A stretch of DNA of 64,000 bases from Bdellovibrionota bacterium FG-1 (GTDB taxonomy: Bacteria > Bdellovibrionota > UBA1018), in the NCBI GenBank assembly GCA_051382295.1, contig JBBCAW010000008.1:128001-192000 (forward strand). The letters run 5' to 3'. The position numbers were made by a program, and so were the translations under genes. Position 1 is the stretch's first letter. Every line of letters begins with the position of its first letter. The notes under the pieces were generated by a model. That model did not search any database and was not told the DNA's origin. It saw only the letters and a program-made list of their open reading frames with translations. Of the stretch, positions 29,673-48,693 are shown piece by piece.

Positions 29673-30579
29673 TCAGGAATGCACCCGCCCTTTCCATTCC
29701 GGCCATCAACTCTTGCTCGATTTGCGGAATGACCTCAGCACTCAATCGGATATTATGCAAAAGATCAGGGGTGATCTGGCCCCCCGAACAATCTCCCGAA
29801 TGTCCGATATTATTTTTAAGACAAATTTGATTAGCAAGCCTCACCACGTGCACAAACGGCTTAGCCGACGACAGAATACTATCCATTTTACTGACGTCAA
29901 AATGATGATAGCGAATCGCCAGTCGGATCGTCTGAGGGAGCCCCCACTTGGCGGCGAGGAGTTCCCCCATGAGAGAATGCCCGGGCAGATCCATTTTCCT
30001 TTCAACCTCTAAATAAGACTTCTGGCTGCTCCGGGCCTTGCTCACGACTTCAATCAGACGATGGCGATCTACCTGATAAAGCGCGAGTTTTCCGACGTCA
30101 TGGAGCAGCCCACAGGTAAAGGCCTCTTCGGGCTTTTTGAAAGAGAGCTTTTTAGCCAGAATCTCGCTACAAACCGCGGTACCGAGCGCATGCCTCCAAA
30201 ACTCGACAATCGAAAATACTTCGGTTTCTTCTGAAGAAAATACCGAAAAAACAGAAAGCCCCAGAACCAATTGCGCGAGCGTATTGAATCCCAAAAAGGC
30301 CAGTGCCCGTTGCACATCGGCGACGCCGCCCGGAATGGCATAATAAGCGGAGTTCACCAGCCGCAAGACCTTGGCTGTCAGGACCTGATCGTTTCTCATG
30401 ACCTCGGCAATGTCGGCACCTGAAGATGCGGGGTTGTCGATCAACTCATTGACCTTTATCGCCACGGTAGGCAACGTTGGAATGTCACTCAACTTGGCGA
30501 GAAGTTCAGAGTATTCAGAATCAGTTTTTTTCTTTGGCGCACGTTGCCCCATGATTGTCTTTTCGGACACATGAGTCAT
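29659..30579 (-). CDS. HDOD domain protein
   Basis: IPTLP, DQVLTAKVLRLVNSAYY, FWRHA, GLLHDVGK, WGLP, YHH; start set at ATG 30579. Confidence 0.92.
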   Translation of the reverse strand: MTHVSEKTIMGQRAPKKKTDSEYSELLAKLSDIPTLPTVAIKVNELIDNPASSGADIAEVMRNDQVLTAKVLRLVNSAYYAIPGGVADVQRALAFLGFNTLAQLVLGLSVFSVFSSEETEVFSIVEFWRHALGTAVCSEILAKKLSFKKPEEAFTCGLLHDVGKLALYQVDRHRLIEVVSKARSSQKSYLEVERKMDLPGHSLMGELLAAKWGLPQTIRLAIRYHHFDVSKMDSILSSAKPFVHVVRLANQICLKNNIGHSGDCSGGQITPDLLHNIRLSAEVIPQIEQELMAGMERAGAFLNVYR

Positions 30580-30656
30580 TTCCTTTACTTTCTTTACAGT
30601 TTTATTATCAGGTATTTTTAGTGAGTCATAACGGGTGGTTAATAAGGTAGAAACCG

Positions 30657-30672
30657 GGGCATGTTTTGTGCT
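30657..30672 (+). promoter_or_regulatory. Candidate sigma54 promoter
   Basis: GGGCATGTTTTGTGCT = GG-N10-GC, 46 nt upstream of ATG 30719. Confidence 0.55.
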
Positions 30673-30718
30673 TTCATTACAGACAACAAACCTCGTAAAA
30701 AAACCGGAGACAAGATCC

Positions 30719-31051
30719 ATGAAAAAAATTCACCTTTTATTATGCGCCCTTTCGATAGTGGGAACTTCGGCGCTCGCCGCGGACAAAACGGCTCAAGCAC
30801 CGGCCACTGCCAAACGGCCAGAACCCACCGCCGAACAACGGCAGAAGATGGCCACCCTTCATGAGAAAATGGCCGCCTGTCTCAGGACCGATCGAAAATT
30901 GTCGGACTGTCGTCAAGAAATGATGAAAAGCTGCAAAGAACAAATGGGTAAGGACGGGTGCCCGATGATGGGAAGAGATGGAATGCATCATCATGGAATG
31001 GGTATGGGCCACGATAAGATGACTCCGCCACCTGAAGCGGCGAAGAAGTAA
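30719..31051 (+). CDS. Small secreted Met/His/Cys-rich protein
   Basis: RBS GGAG, signal MKKIHLLLCALSIVGTSALA, HEKMAACL...CRQEMMKSC...CPMMG...MHHHGMGMGH. Confidence 0.8.
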   Translation: MKKIHLLLCALSIVGTSALAADKTAQAPATAKRPEPTAEQRQKMATLHEKMAACLRTDRKLSDCRQEMMKSCKEQMGKDGCPMMGRDGMHHHGMGMGHDKMTPPPEAAKK

Positions 31052-31054
31052 GGG

Positions 31055-31350
31055 CTAGGCCGCAGGCTCGACTTCAACCCGGTACTTTAACCCAGCAGAA
31101 CGCAAACTTTCCTCTATTGAAAGCCGCACTAAGAGCGCTGGAGGAACTCCAACCGTTAGAGCGATTTGTTCTGCTTTTTCGGGGCTCACGCCTTTTCGCC
31201 CTTTTTCGATATCACAAAGATTTGCGACCGAAAGACCGACAAGTTTGCCAAAATATTTGAGGGTCATTTCCTCAGACACCTGCCAAGTATGCAAAAATTC
31301 GCCTACCGTAAGCGCGCCATAATATTTATCCAAATCCTTAAACAAGTCGA
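31055..31350 (-). pseudogene. XRE-family HTH (HigA-like antitoxin), 5'-truncated
   Basis: LTVGEFLHTW...LSVANLCDIEKGRKGVSPEKA; no plausible start before it merges into the antisense strand of the HNH gene. Confidence 0.6.
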
Positions 31351-31969
31351 GTCCCTCAGTCAGCGTGAGTGTGAGGTTAAGCTTCACGATATTTCGCCGG
31401 AAATTCTCCCTCAAGAACGGGAACGTATCGTGTCTGCCAAGAAGGATCACGCACTAAAACTCGTGATCTCGGACGAGGTCTTCGAAAATTTGCAGCGAAT
31501 CAAGTCCCTCCTCGCGCACACAAAGCCCAACGCCAGTTATGCTGAACTCATCGAGTACCTGGTCAATGAAACCCTGTTCCGTCTTGAAAAGAAGAAGGGC
31601 ATTATGCCTGCGGTGAATTCTACCGCCGCTGTGGCGGTGACCGAGAAAACCACTCTACTTCCCACAGATCCCTTGCCTGAGGGCCAGCGTGTTTATCTAC
31701 CTGTAGCGCTCAGGCGTCAGGTTTTCGCTCGATCGGAGGGCCGGTGCGAGTACACCCACGATGGCAGGCGATGTACCTCGCGTTATGCCCTTGAATTAGA
31801 CCATGTCACACCGCTGGCGCTTGGGGGATCTAACGAGCCCTCGAATTTAAGGGTGCTCTGCAAATCCCACAATTTACAACAGGCGGCGGCAAATCAGGTC
31901 TTTGATTCATACAAAATCAAGAGAGGTCGGTTCCACGATGGAGGGCTCTTGGACGAGCGCTCACATTGA
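31331..31969 (+). pseudogene. HNH endonuclease, 5'-truncated
   Basis: RCEY...CTSRYALELDHVTPLALGGSNEPSNLRVLCKSHN; upstream part of the ORF is just the antisense of the XRE gene. Confidence 0.65.
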
Positions 31970-31970
31970 G

Positions 31971-32012
31971 AAACAAAAACCCCGGACTCTCGGCGTTTTG
32001 AGAAATCCAGGG
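31971..32012 (-). terminator. Intrinsic terminator
   Basis: Minus strand CCCUGGAUUUCUC-loop-GAGAGUCCGGGG followed by UUUUUGUUU. Confidence 0.7.
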
Positions 32013-32050
32013 CCAAAAATTGCTGAATTCAAGCGATCATCCAATAATTT

Positions 32051-33118
32051 TTATTTTTTGCGACGTTGATAAAGGCAATTGCTATTAACCACGTATTTAT
32101 TGGCACGGTGATTAATATTGTAATCAACAACCTGAAGTTTACCGGGAGAAATGGAGATTAAATCGATTCGATCATAAATAGCCTTACCCAGAAGCGACGG
32201 AAGCGGAATTACGCCAAATAATGCTTCAGCACACCGCTCCTTTTGCATCAAAACAGTGCGATTCCCTTGAACTTCAATTATTGCTTGGGTCGTGCAGTTT
32301 GTAATTCCATTTTGAGTCTGCTGCGATGGTCGCGATATTTCCACAGGCTTATAAATTCCATACCTATGAGAGAAAAAAACAAACTCATCTTCGTCGATAT
32401 TCAATGAAATATGCATCTCCGAGTTACAGTATGCTCCTTGAGAAGCCACCAAATCATATTCGCTTACTAAAGTCGCAGGTTGGATTGAAGTACTCGCTAC
32501 TTCTTTCACCGCCAACCGCAACACCGTCTCCGGCACAAGGTAGTCCGTGATCTGGTTCGAAACCCCATAATCCGAAGACGCGCCCACGTTCTGTTCTGCT
32601 CCTGCTAGCCCAGCAAACTCGTGATGCACCAATCGATATTGCTCAGCCTGCGAAGCCGCCGCAAAGCGTTCGGTGTTACAAAGCAAATGAGGCAATGGAT
32701 CACCATAGGCAACAAAGCCACGGCAAGTCTTTGGCTGACCATCGACACTCACTTTAAGATTAGGATCAAAGGTTTTACTTTCTTGATCCGTGGTCACAAA
32801 CCCTATCACCACTGCGTGAGGAGCAAGAACCTCGGTCATCGAAGATCGATATGATTCATAGCTCAATCTTTGGGGAAACTTAAGCCCTTGCCCGCCACCG
32901 GCGCTGATCCACTTGAGAATATCCGCACGAATCTCATCCACTCGAGGTTCAGATGCATCTCCCCCACCACCCACTCCACTCCCACCACCTTCACGGGCAA
33001 AGACCGGGGACTGCGCTGCGATCAGCAGTGAGGCCGCCAAACTCAGACTCGTGGCCAGATTTAAACTCAACTTTTTATTTTCATTAATTACAGTTTTCAT
33101 TTTCATTTTTCCTTTCAT
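32051..33118 (-). CDS. Secreted hypothetical protein
   Basis: Signal peptide then REGGGSGVGGGGD; LVHHEFAGLAGAE motif; several possible starts (MKGKMKMK). Confidence 0.8.
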   Translation of the reverse strand: MKGKMKMKTVINENKKLSLNLATSLSLAASLLIAAQSPVFAREGGGSGVGGGGDASEPRVDEIRADILKWISAGGGQGLKFPQRLSYESYRSSMTEVLAPHAVVIGFVTTDQESKTFDPNLKVSVDGQPKTCRGFVAYGDPLPHLLCNTERFAAASQAEQYRLVHHEFAGLAGAEQNVGASSDYGVSNQITDYLVPETVLRLAVKEVASTSIQPATLVSEYDLVASQGAYCNSEMHISLNIDEDEFVFFSHRYGIYKPVEISRPSQQTQNGITNCTTQAIIEVQGNRTVLMQKERCAEALFGVIPLPSLLGKAIYDRIDLISISPGKLQVVDYNINHRANKYVVNSNCLYQRRKK

Positions 33119-33142
33119 TCTCTCGATTTATTTTTGAAACAT
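33119..33142 (+). repeat. 24-bp direct repeat, copy 1 (TCTCTCGATTTATTTTTGAAACAT)
   Basis: Exact match to 36523-36546. Confidence 0.9.
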
Positions 33143-33226
33143 TCCGATATAAAGCAGACTCGCGGCGAGACTCAGAACAAAACTCACCACGTTGATTTCC
33201 ACGAACTTAATCACTTGCTTACTCAT
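33128..33226 (-). CDS. Small 32-aa hydrophobic ORF MSKQVIKFVEINVVSFVLSLAASLLYIGMFQK
   Basis: AAGGAG RBS 5 nt before ATG; ATGA overlap with the TIGR02147 stop. Confidence 0.55.
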   Translation of the reverse strand: MSKQVIKFVEINVVSFVLSLAASLLYIGMFQK

Positions 33227-34113
33227 ACAGACTCCTTAGAAACAGCTTGGGTTAAGGGGAAAATTTGTACATTCAGTTGATAAACTTCGTCGCAATCCCC
33301 TTCGGTTGCGAAGGCCGCGAGTTCTTTTTCGAATTCCTGGATTCTGCGCTTGGCCTCTTCCACACGAGAACGGGGAATCGCGATCGTAAGTCCGCTGATC
33401 CGCCGCGCCTGAAACGATGCCTCATCCGTCTTACCCAGCTGATCCAGCGCTTTGCCGATCATTTGGCGATGAAAGCTACGAACCGCCACTTCAGAACGAG
33501 TCGTCGGAAAATAAATCTTGGCTTGCGCCTTACAAAAAATTCCATTTTCGAGACGTGCCAAACCCAAACTGACCAACCGATCCATCGCATCACGCGCCTC
33601 GATCGGACCAATACCTAAGCGGCGGCTGATCCACACCGGATCACTCACAAACCCCTGCGTCGTGCTCAAATCCAGAATTGCGAGATGATACCACTGACTG
33701 ATCGCCTTAAATCTCTCGATCTCAAGATTGATAAAGAGCGGTTCACTTGCCACCTGAGCCGCTAAACCTTGACGACGGGCGCGCTGAATCCTTTTGAGCG
33801 CCTTGGAGTTCTCGGGCAACGCCATGAGCGCGCTCTCAATAAACTGCTCCGCCTTAGCCTTTGAAAAATTCAGAAGAACCGAAATCTGTGTCGCTTGCTT
33901 CAACGTCAGCGGACGCTTGCCGTTAAACACCAAACTCACCAGCGCCTGACTCATTCCAAGATCGCGCGCAAAGGCCCGCGTCGAGTAGGCTGAATTCTTA
34001 GACTTACGCTCCAAAAAGACCTCCCGAAGAATTTCGGAAGGCTTGCGAGGAGTCGCCACCGCTGGGTCCGCGACTGAAAGCCTATTCGAGGTGATGGTTT
34101 GTTGCTCGTTCAT
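33223..34113 (-). CDS. TIGR02147 family protein (HTH + DUF4423)
   Basis: KNSAYSTRAFARDLG...NGKRPLT, WYHLAILDL, FHRQMI, VYQLNVQIFPLT. Confidence 0.9.
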   Translation of the reverse strand: MNEQQTITSNRLSVADPAVATPRKPSEILREVFLERKSKNSAYSTRAFARDLGMSQALVSLVFNGKRPLTLKQATQISVLLNFSKAKAEQFIESALMALPENSKALKRIQRARRQGLAAQVASEPLFINLEIERFKAISQWYHLAILDLSTTQGFVSDPVWISRRLGIGPIEARDAMDRLVSLGLARLENGIFCKAQAKIYFPTTRSEVAVRSFHRQMIGKALDQLGKTDEASFQARRISGLTIAIPRSRVEEAKRRIQEFEKELAAFATEGDCDEVYQLNVQIFPLTQAVSKESV

Positions 34114-34169
34114 AACGAGCGCAGATGTATCGCATCCTAATGCAGTGCGCTATATAATTTTAATCAAAG

Positions 34170-34187
34170 TGATTACAAATGTAATCA
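34170..34187. promoter_or_regulatory. Perfect palindrome, candidate operator
   Basis: TGATTACA-AA-TGTAATCA in AT-rich DNA 56 nt upstream of the TIGR02147 start. Confidence 0.65.
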
Positions 34188-34259
34188 TGAGGAAAAAATC
34201 AATTAAATTCATCTAGTTAATACCATTAACCCTACCCAGTCTAAATCTATACACCGCTC

Positions 34260-34350
34260 TTATTGACGAGAATCTCCAAAAAACATACTGAGGAATTGAG
34301 AAAGGGTGGGGGCGATCTCAATCATTCGATCATCACCGGATTTAGATGAA
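34260..34350 (-). pseudogene. Possible tyrosine-recombinase remnant
   Basis: Reads SSKSGDDRMIEIAPTLSQFL, resembling the K-x-G-x-x-R-x-(V/I) hairpin segment of integrases; very short. Confidence 0.3.
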
Positions 34351-34472
34351 ATGAATGTGACTCTGGCAGCTTCATTTCTATAGACCACCACGACATTTCT
34401 ATCGACCATTTCAGCGACTGTCCGATAGAATTTGTCTTTGCTTTTGCCAGGTTACAACCAGCGACCGAACCT

Positions 34473-36164
34473 CTATTGGCCATCACTGCCTTGTCGGTCA
34501 ATAGATTTTTGCAGGCGATAACGGCTCCAGCGACGCTCGCCAGCCTTCATAAGATCGCCGGCCTCTTCCATAGACTTCAGGGATCGACGAAGCGTCCTTA
34601 GGGATATTTCCTGACCAATGCGCCTTTGAATCTCGGATATGGATGACTCTGGGTAGCGTTCGAGATCCTCGATAATCAACGCACGAAGCCGGTGCGGTTG
34701 TATTCGCGTTAGAGTCGTCCGCCGATCAAGTCCAGCGCGGCGCAAGAGGTCAGGGGGCACAAAATACCGCATCGCACTAGTTCTTCCTGTCCGCTGCACC
34801 AACCCTAAGTCAACGAGTCTGTCGATCCAGCCGCGCAACGAAACCGAATCATCCCCAAGCTCTAGGCTGCGGGCGAATTCTACGGCAGAAAGTCCGTCAC
34901 CCTGGGCGAGAAGTGCGAGAGCAATACGTTCCCTTTGCGTAAGTTGGTACTGTCGGTCCACCTCCGAGATAAACGCAATCACCTCAGGCCTCATGACACG
35001 CCTTGGGATCGTTACATGGACAGAGTCGGTCCCTTCCCTGGCGGTTGGTGCAGATCGCCCACTGGTGAGAAGGCGCTCGTACATCAAATCAAACCCGCTA
35101 CCCTCGCGTTCCATAAGTTTGAGATCATGAAAAACCCGGGCAAGGGCGTCGTTTCTCCGCCGACTTGAATGAAGAATGTTCCGCGATGTTACACCAAGAG
35201 GCAGGCGTCCTGGATTGACCACTTCCAAGCGATCTGGATGAAGATTCAGAAATATATCGCCGCGCTGAGTATATGGTCGGTGCACAAACGCATTCACAAG
35301 CAATTCGCGAACGACCACCTCATCAAACGCGGGGATCGTCGTGCGCAACATACCCTCAGGAAGCTCGTAGCTTTCACGAAAATCTGGAATCGAGCTCCAA
35401 ACAGCATCCAAAAGTTCAAGCGGTGAAAGTGTATTATCATCCCAAACAATCTTGTGGACCTTGACCCCCTGCTCGTCATACTTGATGGCTTGAACGATTG
35501 GAGCGACACCCAGCTTTGCGCGATCTGACGCCCTTCCCAGCAACAGCAGTCCAAGGTTTGTAAGCAATCCAGATGTCATAAGTCCGTAATGATCGAGAAG
35601 CTCGTCATTCGATTTTTGTTTGACCGATGCCTTGACCCGATCTGATGCGCGAATTTTAGAAACCAGCTCATTGACCTTGGTTGGATCTGCGGAATCACGT
35701 ACCACGCCTAATGCGGTCATCATCTCCCATGGAGTCGCCGGCCGTTCATCGGCAAGACGAAGTACGGCGTCACCAACGATCGGACTACAGGTATCGCCAA
35801 TCCGCAGAAAGTAACGGCCATCACTGGTCGAGGCCACCCCCGGAGAGCGAGATACTGTCAGGCAAATGTAAGATCCCCCATTTTCATCGACAATAATCTC
35901 CGGCAAAATCTGAACGTTAACCGTCAGCTCTCCAATTCTTTTACGCAAACGATCCGGCAAGGCTTGGTCAATCTGCTGTTCAGACGGCGGGTGGTCCATC
36001 CCGTCTTCAATACCACCGAGGATCCGCCCGCCCGCACCGTTCGCAAAGCAAACACAAGTCGCCGCGAGATCACGCAAGTTCGCCCGGTCACCCGTGACTA
36101 GACGAAGCGATTTTCGCTCGACATACTGAGTCTCGGCTCCGCCCGAGTGTCCGACAGCGCTCAT
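34473..36164 (-). CDS. Schlafen/AlbA_2 + HATPase_c_4 (RecG C-terminal-like) + winged-HTH protein
   Basis: ETQYVERKS...CFANGAGGRILGGIED; RELLVNAFVHRPY, NPGRLP, RRNDALA, MEREGSG; start 36164 by ATGA overlap. Confidence 0.85.
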   Translation of the reverse strand: MSAVGHSGGAETQYVERKSLRLVTGDRANLRDLAATCVCFANGAGGRILGGIEDGMDHPPSEQQIDQALPDRLRKRIGELTVNVQILPEIIVDENGGSYICLTVSRSPGVASTSDGRYFLRIGDTCSPIVGDAVLRLADERPATPWEMMTALGVVRDSADPTKVNELVSKIRASDRVKASVKQKSNDELLDHYGLMTSGLLTNLGLLLLGRASDRAKLGVAPIVQAIKYDEQGVKVHKIVWDDNTLSPLELLDAVWSSIPDFRESYELPEGMLRTTIPAFDEVVVRELLVNAFVHRPYTQRGDIFLNLHPDRLEVVNPGRLPLGVTSRNILHSSRRRNDALARVFHDLKLMEREGSGFDLMYERLLTSGRSAPTAREGTDSVHVTIPRRVMRPEVIAFISEVDRQYQLTQRERIALALLAQGDGLSAVEFARSLELGDDSVSLRGWIDRLVDLGLVQRTGRTSAMRYFVPPDLLRRAGLDRRTTLTRIQPHRLRALIIEDLERYPESSISEIQRRIGQEISLRTLRRSLKSMEEAGDLMKAGERRWSRYRLQKSIDRQGSDGQ

Positions 36165-36403
36165 TGTGCCGCGCCACCAACTTCTTCCGTACCAACCGGG
36201 CTTGACGAGCCAAGAATGTCCGGCACACCTGCACCACCAGAACACACCCAGCCGTCGACCTCGGAGGCCTTGAACTTCCAGAGTCGCCCCATTCGGTGAG
36301 CAGGGATCTTTCCTGCATCCAGCCAGCGATAGATGGTTTCCTTGGAAACGCCGAGATGCGCCGCAATTTCCTCGACTGAAAGCCACCGTTCAATATGGGT
36401 CAT
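36161..36403 (-). CDS. Excisionase-family (HTH_17) DNA-binding protein
   Basis: RWLSVEEIAAHLGVSKETIYRW...IPAHRMGRLWKFKASEVDGWV. Confidence 0.9.
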   Translation of the reverse strand: MTHIERWLSVEEIAAHLGVSKETIYRWLDAGKIPAHRMGRLWKFKASEVDGWVCSGGAGVPDILGSSSPVGTEEVGGAAQ

Positions 36404-36522
36404 TAATATAACTATGGGGGACTGCTGGTGACAATTCAAGACTATTTCAGAACCGCTCAGACAAAGACAAATGACGTTTGCCTCGGCAGATGTTGGGCCG
36501 CTCGAATCACTAACCTAACCAC

Positions 36523-36546
36523 TCTCTCGATTTATTTTTGAAACAT
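36523..36546 (+). repeat. 24-bp direct repeat, copy 2
   Basis: Exact match to 33119-33142; IHF consensus AATCAAATATTTA at 36564-36576. Confidence 0.9.
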
Positions 36547-36606
36547 CGTAAAATAATGTATGAAATCAAATATTTATGATCATGGTAGTTTGTTAGCGTT
36601 TTCTTC

Positions 36607-36635
36607 TTGCCACGATACTGTGTTCACAGTATTGT
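36607..36635 (+). promoter_or_regulatory. Sigma70 promoter with palindromic operator in the spacer
   Basis: TTGCCA-N17-TATTGT enclosing ATACTGTG-TT-CACAGTAT (36615-36632). Confidence 0.7.
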
Positions 36636-36667
36636 AAATTCGTAAAAAACATCATTTGGGATGGCAC

Positions 36668-37270
36668 ATGAAGCAACGCTTTTGCCCGCACTGTGAGGAC
36701 GACACGAACGTAATTGAGAAGAAGGTTTCGATCCCCGTCGGGGCCGAGTCCTTCTCTATCCACACCCTAGTTTGCAAGAAATGTGGCCACTATGCCCTGA
36801 CGCCCGATCTCCGCAAGGAAATGGACCAGTGGGGCCGCAGCCTAACCAAAAACATCGTGGAACCACAGCCTGTATTCAGCGAGGCTACGCACCGTTTCGC
36901 CGAGGAGATGGCGACCCAATACGGGCTCAAACGCGTCCCATTCTTTCGCGTCTTGACGGCCTTCTATCTCAATCGTGTCGTCAACAGAGATGACTTTCAG
37001 GAACTTAAGAAATTCTGCGACGCGCACGCGCCACGGAAGCTGCTTGACGAAGGCACACGCTCCAAGGTGAGTGTGCCCATTCGGTATCTCATGTATCGGA
37101 AGCTTCAGACGTTTAGCGAGGTCTGGGAGATTTCGCATGCAAGGGCGATCGAGGAAGCCGTTCTATTTGGGCTGACGGTCTTGAGCTGCAAAGAAGCGAA
37201 TTTTGAGAAGCTTAAGACGATTGCGGATAGTCTACAGCAATATATCACGGACATTGCAGAGGCTGCATGA
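36668..37270 (+). CDS. YgiT/MqsA-type zinc-finger protein
   Basis: CPHC-x26-CKKC N-terminus, helical C-terminus. Confidence 0.65.
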   Translation: MKQRFCPHCEDDTNVIEKKVSIPVGAESFSIHTLVCKKCGHYALTPDLRKEMDQWGRSLTKNIVEPQPVFSEATHRFAEEMATQYGLKRVPFFRVLTAFYLNRVVNRDDFQELKKFCDAHAPRKLLDEGTRSKVSVPIRYLMYRKLQTFSEVWEISHARAIEEAVLFGLTVLSCKEANFEKLKTIADSLQQYITDIAEAA

Positions 37271-37464
37271 CCACTCAAGGCAAAATCATTCAAAATCAAC
37301 TTGCCGAGGATTCTGAAGAACTCCTGAAGTCAGCAATCCTTTCTAATCTTGACATGACTTTTGAAGAACGCATCAGCGCGCATGAAAATGCTCGACAACT
37401 CATGCTCGACTTAGAGGAAGCAGGAAGGGCATGGCGTGCAGCAGAATCTAAAAAGTCTACTTGA
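37267..37464 (+). CDS. Small protein, putative partner of the nucleotidyltransferase
   Basis: 65 aa, ATGA-coupled, NLDMTFEERI motif, overlaps the next gene. Confidence 0.7.
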   Translation: MTTQGKIIQNQLAEDSEELLKSAILSNLDMTFEERISAHENARQLMLDLEEAGRAWRAAESKKST

Positions 37465-37921
37465 GCGTCTCCTTTCTTTTAAGGTCGATTTCGTTCTTAT
37501 TGGTGGTTTTGCGGCCGTAATTCACGGTTCCACGCTAGTGACCCGAGACCTCGATATTTGTGCTGCCATTACTGAAACCGAAATTGCTAAACTGCGAGAT
37601 GCACTCAAAGACCTCCATCCACGTCACCGAATAAATCCGAACGCAAAGCATTCTTTCCTCGAATATCCAGCCGACATTCGCGGAACTAACAACATCTATC
37701 TTGAAACGGATCTTGGGGTTCTTGATATCCTTTCTAAAATCCCACCCGCAGGGGATTTTAACGAAATCAAGAGCCGAGCCTTTGAGATTTCGCTCTATGG
37801 ACACATATGCAAGGTGATTTCAATTGATGACCTGATCGAGATCAAGAAGGCAATGAACCGGCCGAAAGACCAGCAAGCCGTCCGAGAACTCACGTTGATC
37901 CGGCAAAAACAGAAAACCTGA
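37436..37921 (+). CDS. Pol-beta superfamily nucleotidyltransferase (DUF6036/AbiEii-like)
   Basis: LIGGFAAVIHG...TRDLDI, GVLDIL, KKAMNRPKD. Confidence 0.85.
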   Translation: MQQNLKSLLERLLSFKVDFVLIGGFAAVIHGSTLVTRDLDICAAITETEIAKLRDALKDLHPRHRINPNAKHSFLEYPADIRGTNNIYLETDLGVLDILSKIPPAGDFNEIKSRAFEISLYGHICKVISIDDLIEIKKAMNRPKDQQAVRELTLIRQKQKT

Positions 37922-37933
37922 ATCATCCCATCC

Positions 37934-37966
37934 TTGACTTCATATACGACATCTGGTATCGTATAT
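37934..37966 (+). promoter_or_regulatory. isc promoter with candidate IscR/Rrf2 operator
   Basis: TTGACT-N17-TATCGT overlapped by ATATACGA-N9-TCGTATAT. Confidence 0.7.
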
Positions 37967-38061
37967 CGGAAAGGACCAGTAAATCACCTTACTCTTGATA
38001 TCGGACTCACTTTGTCGTAGATCAGTGTCGATATCCATTTTAAGAGAAACACTCAGTTTTT

Positions 38062-38538
38062 ATGATTAAACTCAACCGAACTACTGAATACGGTTTAATG
38101 GCTCTTCGCCACATGAACCGAAAGCGCGCAGCAGCCGGAGTCGGCGAACTCTCCGAGGTGACCAGTGCCCGTGAGATTTCGGATTCTTACGGCCTTCCTT
38201 TTGAAATCACCGCCAAGACCTTGCAGCGTCTCAAGGACACCGGCTTGATTCAATCCGCGCAAGGAGCTCGCGGAGGCTATACCCTCAGTCGTTCTCTCGC
38301 GGATATCAATGTGGCGGAGTTTCTCGCGCTCATGGAAGGGCCCCAATCCGTCGTCGCGTGCGCCGGATCAATATCCCCAGACCCGGTTCATTCCACCTGT
38401 GCCTATAAGGGCCGTTGCGAAATCAAACATATGATGAACGATTTGAATTCACGTCTCTCCGGCTTTCTTGCTGGAATTAGCTTAATCGAACTCGCCCATT
38501 CTCCCCTGATTGCCCCCCCTATCGAAGAGAGGAATTAA
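38062..38538 (+). CDS. iscR: Rrf2-family regulator (IscR-like)
   Basis: TEYGLMAL, SAQGARGGYTL, three Cys; heads the isc operon. Confidence 0.82.
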   Translation: MIKLNRTTEYGLMALRHMNRKRAAAGVGELSEVTSAREISDSYGLPFEITAKTLQRLKDTGLIQSAQGARGGYTLSRSLADINVAEFLALMEGPQSVVACAGSISPDPVHSTCAYKGRCEIKHMMNDLNSRLSGFLAGISLIELAHSPLIAPPIEERN

Positions 38539-47703: not shown

Positions 47704-48693
47704 TTAGAGTTTAAGCTCCGGACGCCCCAGGATTTGAAGGTATTTCTCCATTGTTAATTTAACCGGTGGGCCATCGGGCGTCATTCGGATTTCTCGTCCC
47801 CCCAAAATGGATCCAAGGGTCACCAGAGCCGCGTCCTGAATTTCCCAGGTCTTGACCCGCCTCCGGATAAACTCCACATAGGAGTCGCCCTTCAGATACT
47901 CATCGTATTCTGCTTTGTCAGAATAGCCGATCATAAAGTCCTGCGCCAGACCACTCAACGAGGCCCCTTGCATCGAAACGATCTTATCATCGCCTCGCAC
48001 AAAAAAAGTAGCTACTTCGGCCGTCCTGTATTGCATCACGCTGGCAGACTGATCGGTGTAATCGGTCAAATCCACCATTCGGATCCCAAATCGCTTCACG
48101 TATTGTAAAAACTCTAAGGATTTATTTTGAATGACCTCGTCTGTTTGCGGCTCGATCACCAGATAGGATTGAAAATCCTTCGGGGCCGCCTCATTCATAA
48201 GAACCGCATTGAAAAAATGCCCGGGATAGGTGGCCATCACCAAGGGAATCTGAAATTTCAGTTCCTTTCTGGTTGCATCTACCTTCGCCGTAGCAAGGCG
48301 CTTTCTCGCCCCCGGATCCAGCATGCCTCGATTACTATAACGCGAATAAACCTGCGCTGCAAATCCAGTACAAAGACTATCAAAGGATTCATATTTTCTC
48401 TGACTGGTGTCGTCACGGACCAGAATGAACCTCACCAGTTCTTCACGCGCAGATCTGGTTTTCAGATAGGGCCAGATCGGAAGATCATTGGGCCATTCGT
48501 CAATCGCCTTTTTATAATCCTTTGATTTTGCGGGCTGGCCACTCAAAACAATCAGAGGTTTTTCCAAAATTTTAGTTTGAAGGTCATTGATCTTGGTGAC
48601 TTCTACCATACCCCCTAGGGGCTTTGCACAATCCTGGGAATCTCCAAAAACTGAGTTGAATCCGGCAAGAAATACCATAAAAACGAAGATCAT
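47704..48693 (-). CDS. Secreted protein with papain/transglutaminase-like motifs
   Basis: Signal peptide; LCTGFA, GHFFNA, IEPQTD. Confidence 0.6.
   Translation of the reverse strand: MIFVFMVFLAGFNSVFGDSQDCAKPLGGMVEVTKINDLQTKILEKPLIVLSGQPAKSKDYKKAIDEWPNDLPIWPYLKTRSAREELVRFILVRDDTSQRKYESFDSLCTGFAAQVYSRYSNRGMLDPGARKRLATAKVDATRKELKFQIPLVMATYPGHFFNAVLMNEAAPKDFQSYLVIEPQTDEVIQNKSLEFLQYVKRFGIRMVDLTDYTDQSASVMQYRTAEVATFFVRGDDKIVSMQGASLSGLAQDFMIGYSDKAEYDEYLKGDSYVEFIRRRVKTWEIQDAALVTLGSILGGREIRMTPDGPPVKLTMEKYLQILGRPELKL

Follow-up and report, generated by a model that had tools for sequence, protein, structure and literature searches.

Two described regulatory arrangements come closest to the locus analysed here, in which a regulator of the TIGR02147/DUF4423 family, a 32-codon open reading frame (ORF) and an exported protein (the cargo) are encoded in succession within 64,000 nucleotides of contig JBBCAW010000008.1 from the predatory Bdellovibrionota bacterium FG-1; this whole stretch is the window, and positions refer to it. 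Controller (C) proteins such as C.AhdI, C.PvuII and C.Esp1396I carry an XRE-type helix-turn-helix (HTH) and, in the available part of PMC2632904, are described with sites at their own promoters just above the -35 box, a leaderless message and a coupled downstream gene. The enterococcal cCF10/iCF10 pair with its regulator PrgX, of the RRNPP type, combines two hydrophobic 8-mers, one within the signal of an exported protein and the other encoded by a small ORF beside an XRE-type regulator. In systems of this type, binding of the peptide to the regulator alters its contact with DNA. The accessible text of PMC7117660 places the active peptide in the C-terminal seven to eight residues of signal or small ORF. 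The TIGR02147 (Fsuc_second)/DUF4423 (PF14394) family itself carries no assigned function. A literature search found DUF4423 once, in a table row of a Bdellovibrio proteome in the available part of PMC12546842, and found nothing for TIGR02147, Fsuc_second and related terms, with supplements and most subscription papers outside its scope.

The FG-1 locus shares the outline of both systems and lacks defining features of each. The structure model of its regulator matches C.AhdI (1y7y) at Z 7.7, and a site above the -35 box, a near-leaderless message and a coupled gene are likewise read or predicted here. C proteins, however, are small and single-domain, whereas this regulator has 296 residues and a DUF4423 region; they use two dimer sites, activating from the distal one and repressing from the second, which covers the -35 box, whereas three half-sites here all lie above the predicted -35 box; and their downstream gene encodes an endonuclease, whereas the coupled gene in our case encodes an exported protein. 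Unlike in the enterococcal pheromone pairs, the octapeptide LSLAASLL is identical in small ORF and cargo signal and internal to both, the cargo lacks a lipobox cysteine, the bacterium is Gram-negative and the TIGR02147 family does not conserve the motif. The regulator model also has no C-terminal tetratricopeptide repeat (TPR) domain, and the PrgX entry 2aw6 aligns with it over residues 22-97 only. TIGR02147 cassettes normally hold an exported partner in the coupled slot; here the slot is filled by the 32-codon ORF, which lacks the glycine tag of such partners.

We favour, with moderate confidence, the reading that the small ORF represents a duplicated and shortened signal-peptide front end lying in the coupled slot of an otherwise standard regulator-exported-protein cassette, and that its product is probably not the ligand of the regulator. 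The operator sequence, the coupling, the in-frame layout, the missing tag and a 24-bp repeat that gives the last codons and stop of the small ORF can be read directly in the DNA. All elements of the locus lie on the minus strand. The regulator gene (33223-34113) ends on a stop codon that overlaps the ATG of the small ORF (33128-33226), forming an ATGA coupling, and a ribosome-binding site, AAGGAG (33232-33237), is placed for the small ORF within the 3' end of the regulator gene. Small ORF and cargo share one reading frame with a single TAA between them. The cargo gene (32051-33100, 349 amino acids) has its own ribosome-binding site, AAAGGA (33110-33115), nine nucleotides before the ATG at 33100. 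This site and the 349-residue database entry P0001 make 33100 the most likely start. The cargo carries a signal peptide and, right after its predicted cleavage site, the glycine tag EGGGSGVGGGGD (32957-32992). A preliminary description had named the family, the coupling with its binding site, an upstream palindrome and the shared octapeptide, all of which stand; its downstream secreted protein is also present, but most likely with the start at 33100 rather than 33118. For the terminator proposed in the same description, positions 31971-32014 offer a plausible hairpin that ends in a U tail (z -1.98; 5 of 200 shuffles as good), though a consensus terminator scan did not list it. Rfam models gave no match within 30000-38500.

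The stub reading of the slot is grounded in what the slot normally holds, the signal peptide of the partner. From collected loci and the FG-1 genome we assembled 150 distinct regulator ORFs and kept 90 that had a co-oriented, coupled hydrophobic partner and enough upstream DNA. Those dropped comprised 53 without a coupled hydrophobic partner by our filter (mostly a divergent subgroup, with some truncated and some missed by the filter), 2 that were too short and 5 more (3 of the divergent type, 2 with too little upstream DNA). The partner was ATGA-coupled in 53 of the 90 loci, and it bore a glycine tag in 83 by a loose definition and 71 by a stricter motif, counts biased towards tagged partners because about half of the loci were fetched via the cargo. 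Partners shorter than 90 residues occurred at five loci, and the only tagless one is the 32-codon ORF described here. Two other short partners, at loci L026 and L027, are 87-residue exported proteins that consist of a signal peptide and several copies of a GSGAG(S/N)P tag, resembling repeated-unit peptide precursors.

The preliminary description had envisaged a conserved three-part module, and this was not borne out. None of the five closest regulators (57-64% identity; L036, L002, L037, L003 and L043) has the small ORF; each leads straight into a signal peptide and glycine-tagged partner, and L036 combines the same cargo domain (63%) with the same operator. The small ORF is unique among the 90 regulator loci and, as a small hydrophobic ORF with a binding site, among the 76 cargo loci with 200 nucleotides of upstream sequence. 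On contig C147, an ORF of 23 residues, moderately hydrophobic and preceded by a binding site, lies 140-48 nucleotides before a cargo paralogue, just below our threshold; it shares TVLNL with the signal peptide of another cargo paralogue on contig C85. When 400 other genomes of the phylum were searched with the peptide, three weak matches appeared (E 0.0096-0.09), the best of which is not a free-standing start-to-stop ORF like the query, and a DNA search of 74 other genomes of the family gave short matches only.

What follows the regulator across the family is the tag rather than the octapeptide. Partners of the 15 nearest regulators match LSLAASLL at 2-4 of 8 residues, and those of regulators with the same or nearly the same recognition helix at 3-4 at best. 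The tag ending GVGGGGD, in contrast, is common to the cargo and the partners of L002, L003 and L036, and is found in only 2 of 100 tagged cargo homologues. Over the set, tags follow the regulator more closely (rho 0.21) than signal peptides do (rho 0.08), so the peptide is a poor ligand candidate, and the earlier suggestion that it is a ligand of DUF4423 looks weak. Since the tag ending is shared with relatives and the octapeptide is not kept, cargo and regulator appear to be an old pair and the small ORF a local addition. Tag similarity tracks the HTH (rho 0.20) and DUF4423 (rho 0.21) alike, with partial values of 0.12 and 0.14; tag recognition is therefore not placed in DUF4423, and shared descent can explain the pattern. 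Co-folding of a regulator dimer with cargo residues 40-73, which contain the tag, scored 0.00, a value from a run without controls that speaks neither for nor against binding.

The origin of the truncation is suggested by the 3' end of the small ORF. Its last four codons, stop and the following spacer form a 24-bp sequence (33119-33142) that recurs as an exact direct repeat at 36523-36546, also on the minus strand, directly before genes for an HTH_17/MAD1-like protein and an AlbA_2-ATPase. The copies are 3,404 bp apart and flank the intervening segment as direct repeats; they form the sole exact repeat of at least 18 bp in the window, and no further copy occurs in the genome at up to four mismatches. 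On this basis a recombination junction likely closes a signal-like front end of 28 codons. The AlbA_2-ATPase gene is itself likely foreign, because a similar pair of genes stands at the head of a type I restriction operon in an Aeromonas plasmid and because the protein had no match at 1e-60 in the 400 other genomes of the phylum. At 34473-36439 the HTH and ATP-binding pair stands without methylase and specificity genes behind it. The spacer between small ORF and cargo resembles the gene-to-gene junction of another cassette in the genome (contig C10). A role of the repeat as the operator of another paralogue was rejected by eye, as the partner half-site is missing.

The small ORF encodes a basic N-terminus and one hydrophobic stretch (19-residue hydropathy up to 1.97), in which no signal-peptidase site is evident by eye over the 32 residues. 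Its copy of LSLAASLL (33152-33175) is trailed by seven residues and that of the cargo signal (33023-33046) by nine; by our own count, 16 of the 24 bases agree and six of the eight codons differ. None of 20,000 shuffles of the residues produced a match of eight. The genome has 1,264 signal-like N-termini, among which the next-best match to the small ORF is five residues long. When small hydrophobic ORFs across the genome were paired with the N-terminus encoded downstream of each, one of 1,187 pairs reached eight, the next reaching five. The octapeptide match is not due to chance. The likeness of small ORF and cargo would fit an old duplication and not a recent one.

Several observations weigh against the small ORF being no more than a severed remnant. 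DNA likeness between the small ORF and the 5' end of the cargo gene is weak (72 of 5,000 codon shuffles score equally), and the best DNA register falls on the neighbouring LNLATSLS rather than on LSLAASLL, so that the cargo signal holds an internal repeat. The six differing codons leave the residues unchanged, which suits selection on both copies. None of the 27 PF00589 matches, the signature of tyrosine integrases, lies on this contig (serine recombinases were not searched), and the cognate tag of the cargo ties it to this regulator; on the same two grounds a simple 3.4-kb insertion before an unrelated cargo is a poor fit. There is also the single homologue of the peptide found in a search of 1.84 billion representatives. 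This protein, P0121, has 32 residues, is 94% identical and differs by V5M and I27V only, keeping 30 of 32 residues, the octapeptide and the end residue. A regulator that is 94% identical to ours, P0124, is recorded, like P0121, on an ENA contig of 1,789 bp, and we infer that the two share one contig. In P0124, 11 of the 274 residues of the core and 7 of the 21 in the N-terminal tail are changed; the peptide has changed less than that tail (Fisher p 0.022; 0.031 without the repeat-encoded residues). In simulation, a neutral ORF stays intact with at most two changes with a frequency of 0.002 at a divergence of 0.15, and of 0.28 at 0.05. The ratio of nonsynonymous to synonymous substitution rates in family pairs, where computable, is 0.06-0.13, which suggests a neutral divergence of at least 0.15. 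The small ORF thus does not appear to be visibly decaying. A decayed 5' stub, which the preliminary description had named as the case that would refute it, therefore describes the ORF by half: the stub origin fits, and the decay, with 30 of 32 residues kept in the relative, does not. The pair suggests constraint, although function of the peptide and constraint on the DNA are not separable from one pair of proteins. No fragment of the relative's cargo was found among proteins of 62-200 amino acids.

Some of the same observations lend weight to the alternative that survives best, namely that selection now maintains the peptide as a small membrane protein which adjusts how the cargo is exported or processed. 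It might, for instance, pair with the identical signal helix of the cargo, each helix having an SxxxS face, or compete for the translocon or signal peptidase. Such a role is compatible with an origin as a stub, and we regard it as a possible but clearly less probable account. The conserved length, the two conservative changes and the intact octapeptide in the relative speak for it, as do the strong binding site with ATGA coupling, the identity of the octapeptide through differing codons and a codon adaptation index of 0.83 against 0.79 for the regulator (weak on 32 codons). It is tempered by the fact that one locus and one relative carry the case, that the estimate comes from one protein pair without DNA whose shared contig is itself inferred, and that DNA-level constraint beside the repeat could yield the same pattern. 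A more specific proposal, which we consider unlikely, is that a tagless decoy has been selected: a copy of the cargo signal, made one-to-one with the regulator and sharing LSLAASLL, that would control export or processing of the tagged cargo.

A pheromone-like pair is still less probable. Here an intramembrane protease would free the same octapeptide from the cargo signal and the small ORF, and the regulator would read it, as PrgX reads a pheromone derived from a signal peptide and an inhibitor encoded by a small ORF. The layout invites the comparison, since in the accessible text of PMC7117660 hydrophobic peptides of seven to eight residues derive from a lipoprotein signal and a small ORF; the available part of PMC10470546 describes Escherichia coli RseP as clearing remnant signal peptides and cleaving small membrane proteins. 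Set against this are the poor match of LSLAASLL in partners of regulators whose helix is identical or almost so, the weak tracking of the regulator by signal peptides relative to tags, and a modelled C-terminal region that is winged-helix-like rather than a TPR receptor.

Two further accounts are very improbable. Small ORF and cargo might be a single gene whose signal region was doubled, interrupted by a nonsense codon or joined by occasional read-through of the TAA; the shared frame and single stop are what it predicts, yet an in-frame arrangement has a prior of one in three, read-through of TAA is rare, the relative's peptide ends at the same residue and the cargo owns a binding site and a complete signal peptide. 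Equally, a coincidence of A/T-rich spacer DNA and many-window scanning, to which the post hoc choice of the match from a very large scan and the richness of hydrophobic segments in L, A and S would lend themselves, is contradicted by the shuffles and genome pairs given above, by the canonical coupling, and by the conserved recurrence of the ORF as a called gene in a second assembly. Two regulatory roles for the small ORF were rejected. Secretion-monitoring leaders of the SecM/MifM type need an arrest site beyond the membrane segment, the ribosome tunnel holding 30-40 residues; this peptide has 32 residues and its hydrophobic stretch ends three before the stop. A relay by hairpin opening is dismissed, RNA structure over the small ORF and cargo start being weaker than in shuffles (z +1.88).

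Upstream of the regulator gene, the perfect palindrome TGATTACA-AA-TGTAATCA (34170-34187) occurs once in the 4.44-Mb genome at zero or one mismatch, and it proves to be only the first two half-sites of a longer element. On the minus strand it continues as CTT-TGATTAAA, giving the predicted three-half-site operator TGATTACA-TT-TGTAATCA-CTT-TGATTAAA (34159-34187), followed after 6 bp by a predicted sigma-70-type promoter, TAGCGC-17-TACATC (34124-34152). The family-wide operator unit is an 8-3-8 dyad, here 34159-34177 and centred near -51, and the operator is nearly identical at L002, L003, L036 and L037. A joint model of an 8-3-8 dyad, a gap of 5-7 bp and a promoter, with its threshold at the 99th null percentile, was exceeded by 35 of the 90 loci. 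A dyad spacer of 3 bp is the commonest (35 of 90; the next, 17), and when the dyad is set before the promoter is fitted, its distance to the best -35 box is most often 6 bp (18.4 of 35). Among these 35 loci, a third half-site precedes the dyad in 34 (shuffle mean 4.95), the start codon follows the -10 box by 6-11 nucleotides in 31 (10 in ours), and a Shine-Dalgarno sequence between -10 box and start codon was seen in none. The FG-1 locus follows this family layout, with its dyad 6 bp above the -35 box and its third half-site, and a near-leaderless regulator transcript is predicted.

Each paralogue has its own half-site sequence, and the predicted operator is likely the binding site of the regulator itself. 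Recognition-helix positions 55-57, 60 and 61 were picked after inspection of the loci, by analogy with the 434 repressor. Controlled for DUF4423, operator similarity correlates with these five positions in each of three sets (partial rho 0.35, 0.29 and 0.23, respectively), the third thinned to less than 45% identity and kin not being independent; random column sets reach those values in 0, 0 and 5 of 300 draws. Against a specific role of the helix, a per-column scan places the non-helix positions N281, R212 and W161 level with helix columns. Elsewhere in the genome, and outside the three sets, the dyad is matched just once, at the head of the closest paralogue's operon and 6 bp above a TTGACT box (contig C1, about 47880-47920). 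The site has three half-sites of the same sequence, an exported-protein gene lies between operator and paralogue regulator, and the helix of that paralogue shares S, Q, S and L at the compared positions. Shuffled genomes yield 0-2 dyad matches, a further point of caution, so this site counts by its place and not by its rarity. Cross-regulation of both cassettes is predicted. The autoregulation proposed earlier thereby gains comparative support from an operator conserved with the recognition helix beside the regulator's promoter, and stays a prediction from sequence. A two-mismatch copy of the palindrome lies in the 3' end of the cargo gene (32109-32126), at a distance of 2 kb from the operator, and only 3 of 45 loci have such secondary operator-like sites within a partner gene.

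The regulator scores 112.8 bits against the TIGR02147 profile (cut-off 50) and 122.4 bits against that of DUF4423 (cut-off 30), and the genome holds 32 TIGR02147 matches. Its structure model (predicted local distance difference test, pLDDT, 87.9) matches HigA (2ict) at Z 9.4, 4g6q at 8.2 and CzrA (1r1u) at 8.1, with residues 124-287 matching the winged-helix regulators 4g6q and CzrA. The model thus describes an XRE/HigA-like domain at about residues 20-110 and a winged-helix region at about 124-287 that resembles ArsR-family proteins. A second TIGR02147 subgroup has genes that are divergent from, and not coupled to, cargo genes of the same family (contigs C54, C85 and C147; L054-L060 and others).

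The cargo model has a confident N-terminal domain and a variable, beta-barrel-like C-terminal domain. Its 165 homologues mostly cover the N-domain and keep an invariant H-H-E, with the family consensus HHE[YF]AGL; in the cargo the motif is HHEFAG (32609-32626). The predicted N-domain aligns with several zincin metallopeptidases, among them the deuterolysin/aspzincin-like 1eb6 (Z 7.4, root-mean-square deviation 3.7 over 126 residues), and with 5b0u (Z 7.5), middling scores that stay below 8. Unlike in zincins, the HExxH pattern is absent, since from either histidine of the consensus the fifth residue is not histidine. No Pfam family matched the cargo, and a Foldseek search of solved structures gave no match at E 0.001. 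The C-domain (32051-32500) has 40% G+C against 52% for the N-domain and is not shared by most homologues, a pattern that suggests domain swapping.

The locus lies in an island of accessory genes (30600-37950) between signalling genes and an Rrf2/IscS/IscU cluster, the cluster being named by eye. Besides the regulator cassette, this island holds genes for an XRE HTH protein, an HNH nuclease, the AlbA_2-ATPase, the HTH_17/MAD1-like protein and a zinc-ribbon MqsA-like protein, together with a nucleotidyltransferase-like ORF, also named by eye. Between the HTH_17 and the divergent MqsA-like genes, at approximately 36605-36622, lies an 18-bp near-palindrome with 7-bp arms, ATACTGT-GAAC-ACAGTAT on the minus strand. 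Similar HNH-type ORFs adjoin TIGR02147 cassettes at more than one locus by eye (31166-31969 in the window, contig C106 and L024), and these neighbours may bear on the mobility of the cassettes.

In the mechanism that we propose, the regulator would contact all three half-sites at its promoter through its XRE helix, whose residues would determine which half-site sequence is recognised. Activation seems somewhat likelier than repression, as the site stops 6 bp short of the -35 box instead of covering it; repression via the upstream region is possible. A single near-leaderless transcript would carry regulator, small ORF and cargo. Ribosomes leaving the regulator would restart on the small ORF and stop 27 nucleotides before the cargo start, and cargo translation would begin from its own binding site. 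The small ORF would be an old copy of the 5' end of the partner, severed at the recombination junction that the repeat marks, and its product would stay uncleaved in the inner membrane as a signal-like helix, to be removed as remnant signal peptides are by RseP. Being tagless, such a peptide could not carry what tracks the regulator in the TIGR02147 family. The constraint seen in the close relative may act on the peptide or on the DNA beside the repeat.

If the small ORF is only a stub, it offers a clean example of cassettes cut and rejoined, of modest interest. Should a decoy instead have been selected, it would set the gain of a self-activating TIGR02147 switch and add a layer of inhibitor peptide to a peptide-sensing family of undescribed function. 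Either way, the ORF is a natural variant, a tagless signal-like peptide in the partner slot, that helps to separate the roles of signal peptide and tag. For TIGR02147/DUF4423 regulators, which occur in dozens of copies per Bdellovibrionota genome with no function assigned, the way in which operators are laid out and follow the recognition helix defines exact pairs of protein and DNA, including the predicted cross-talk between paralogues.

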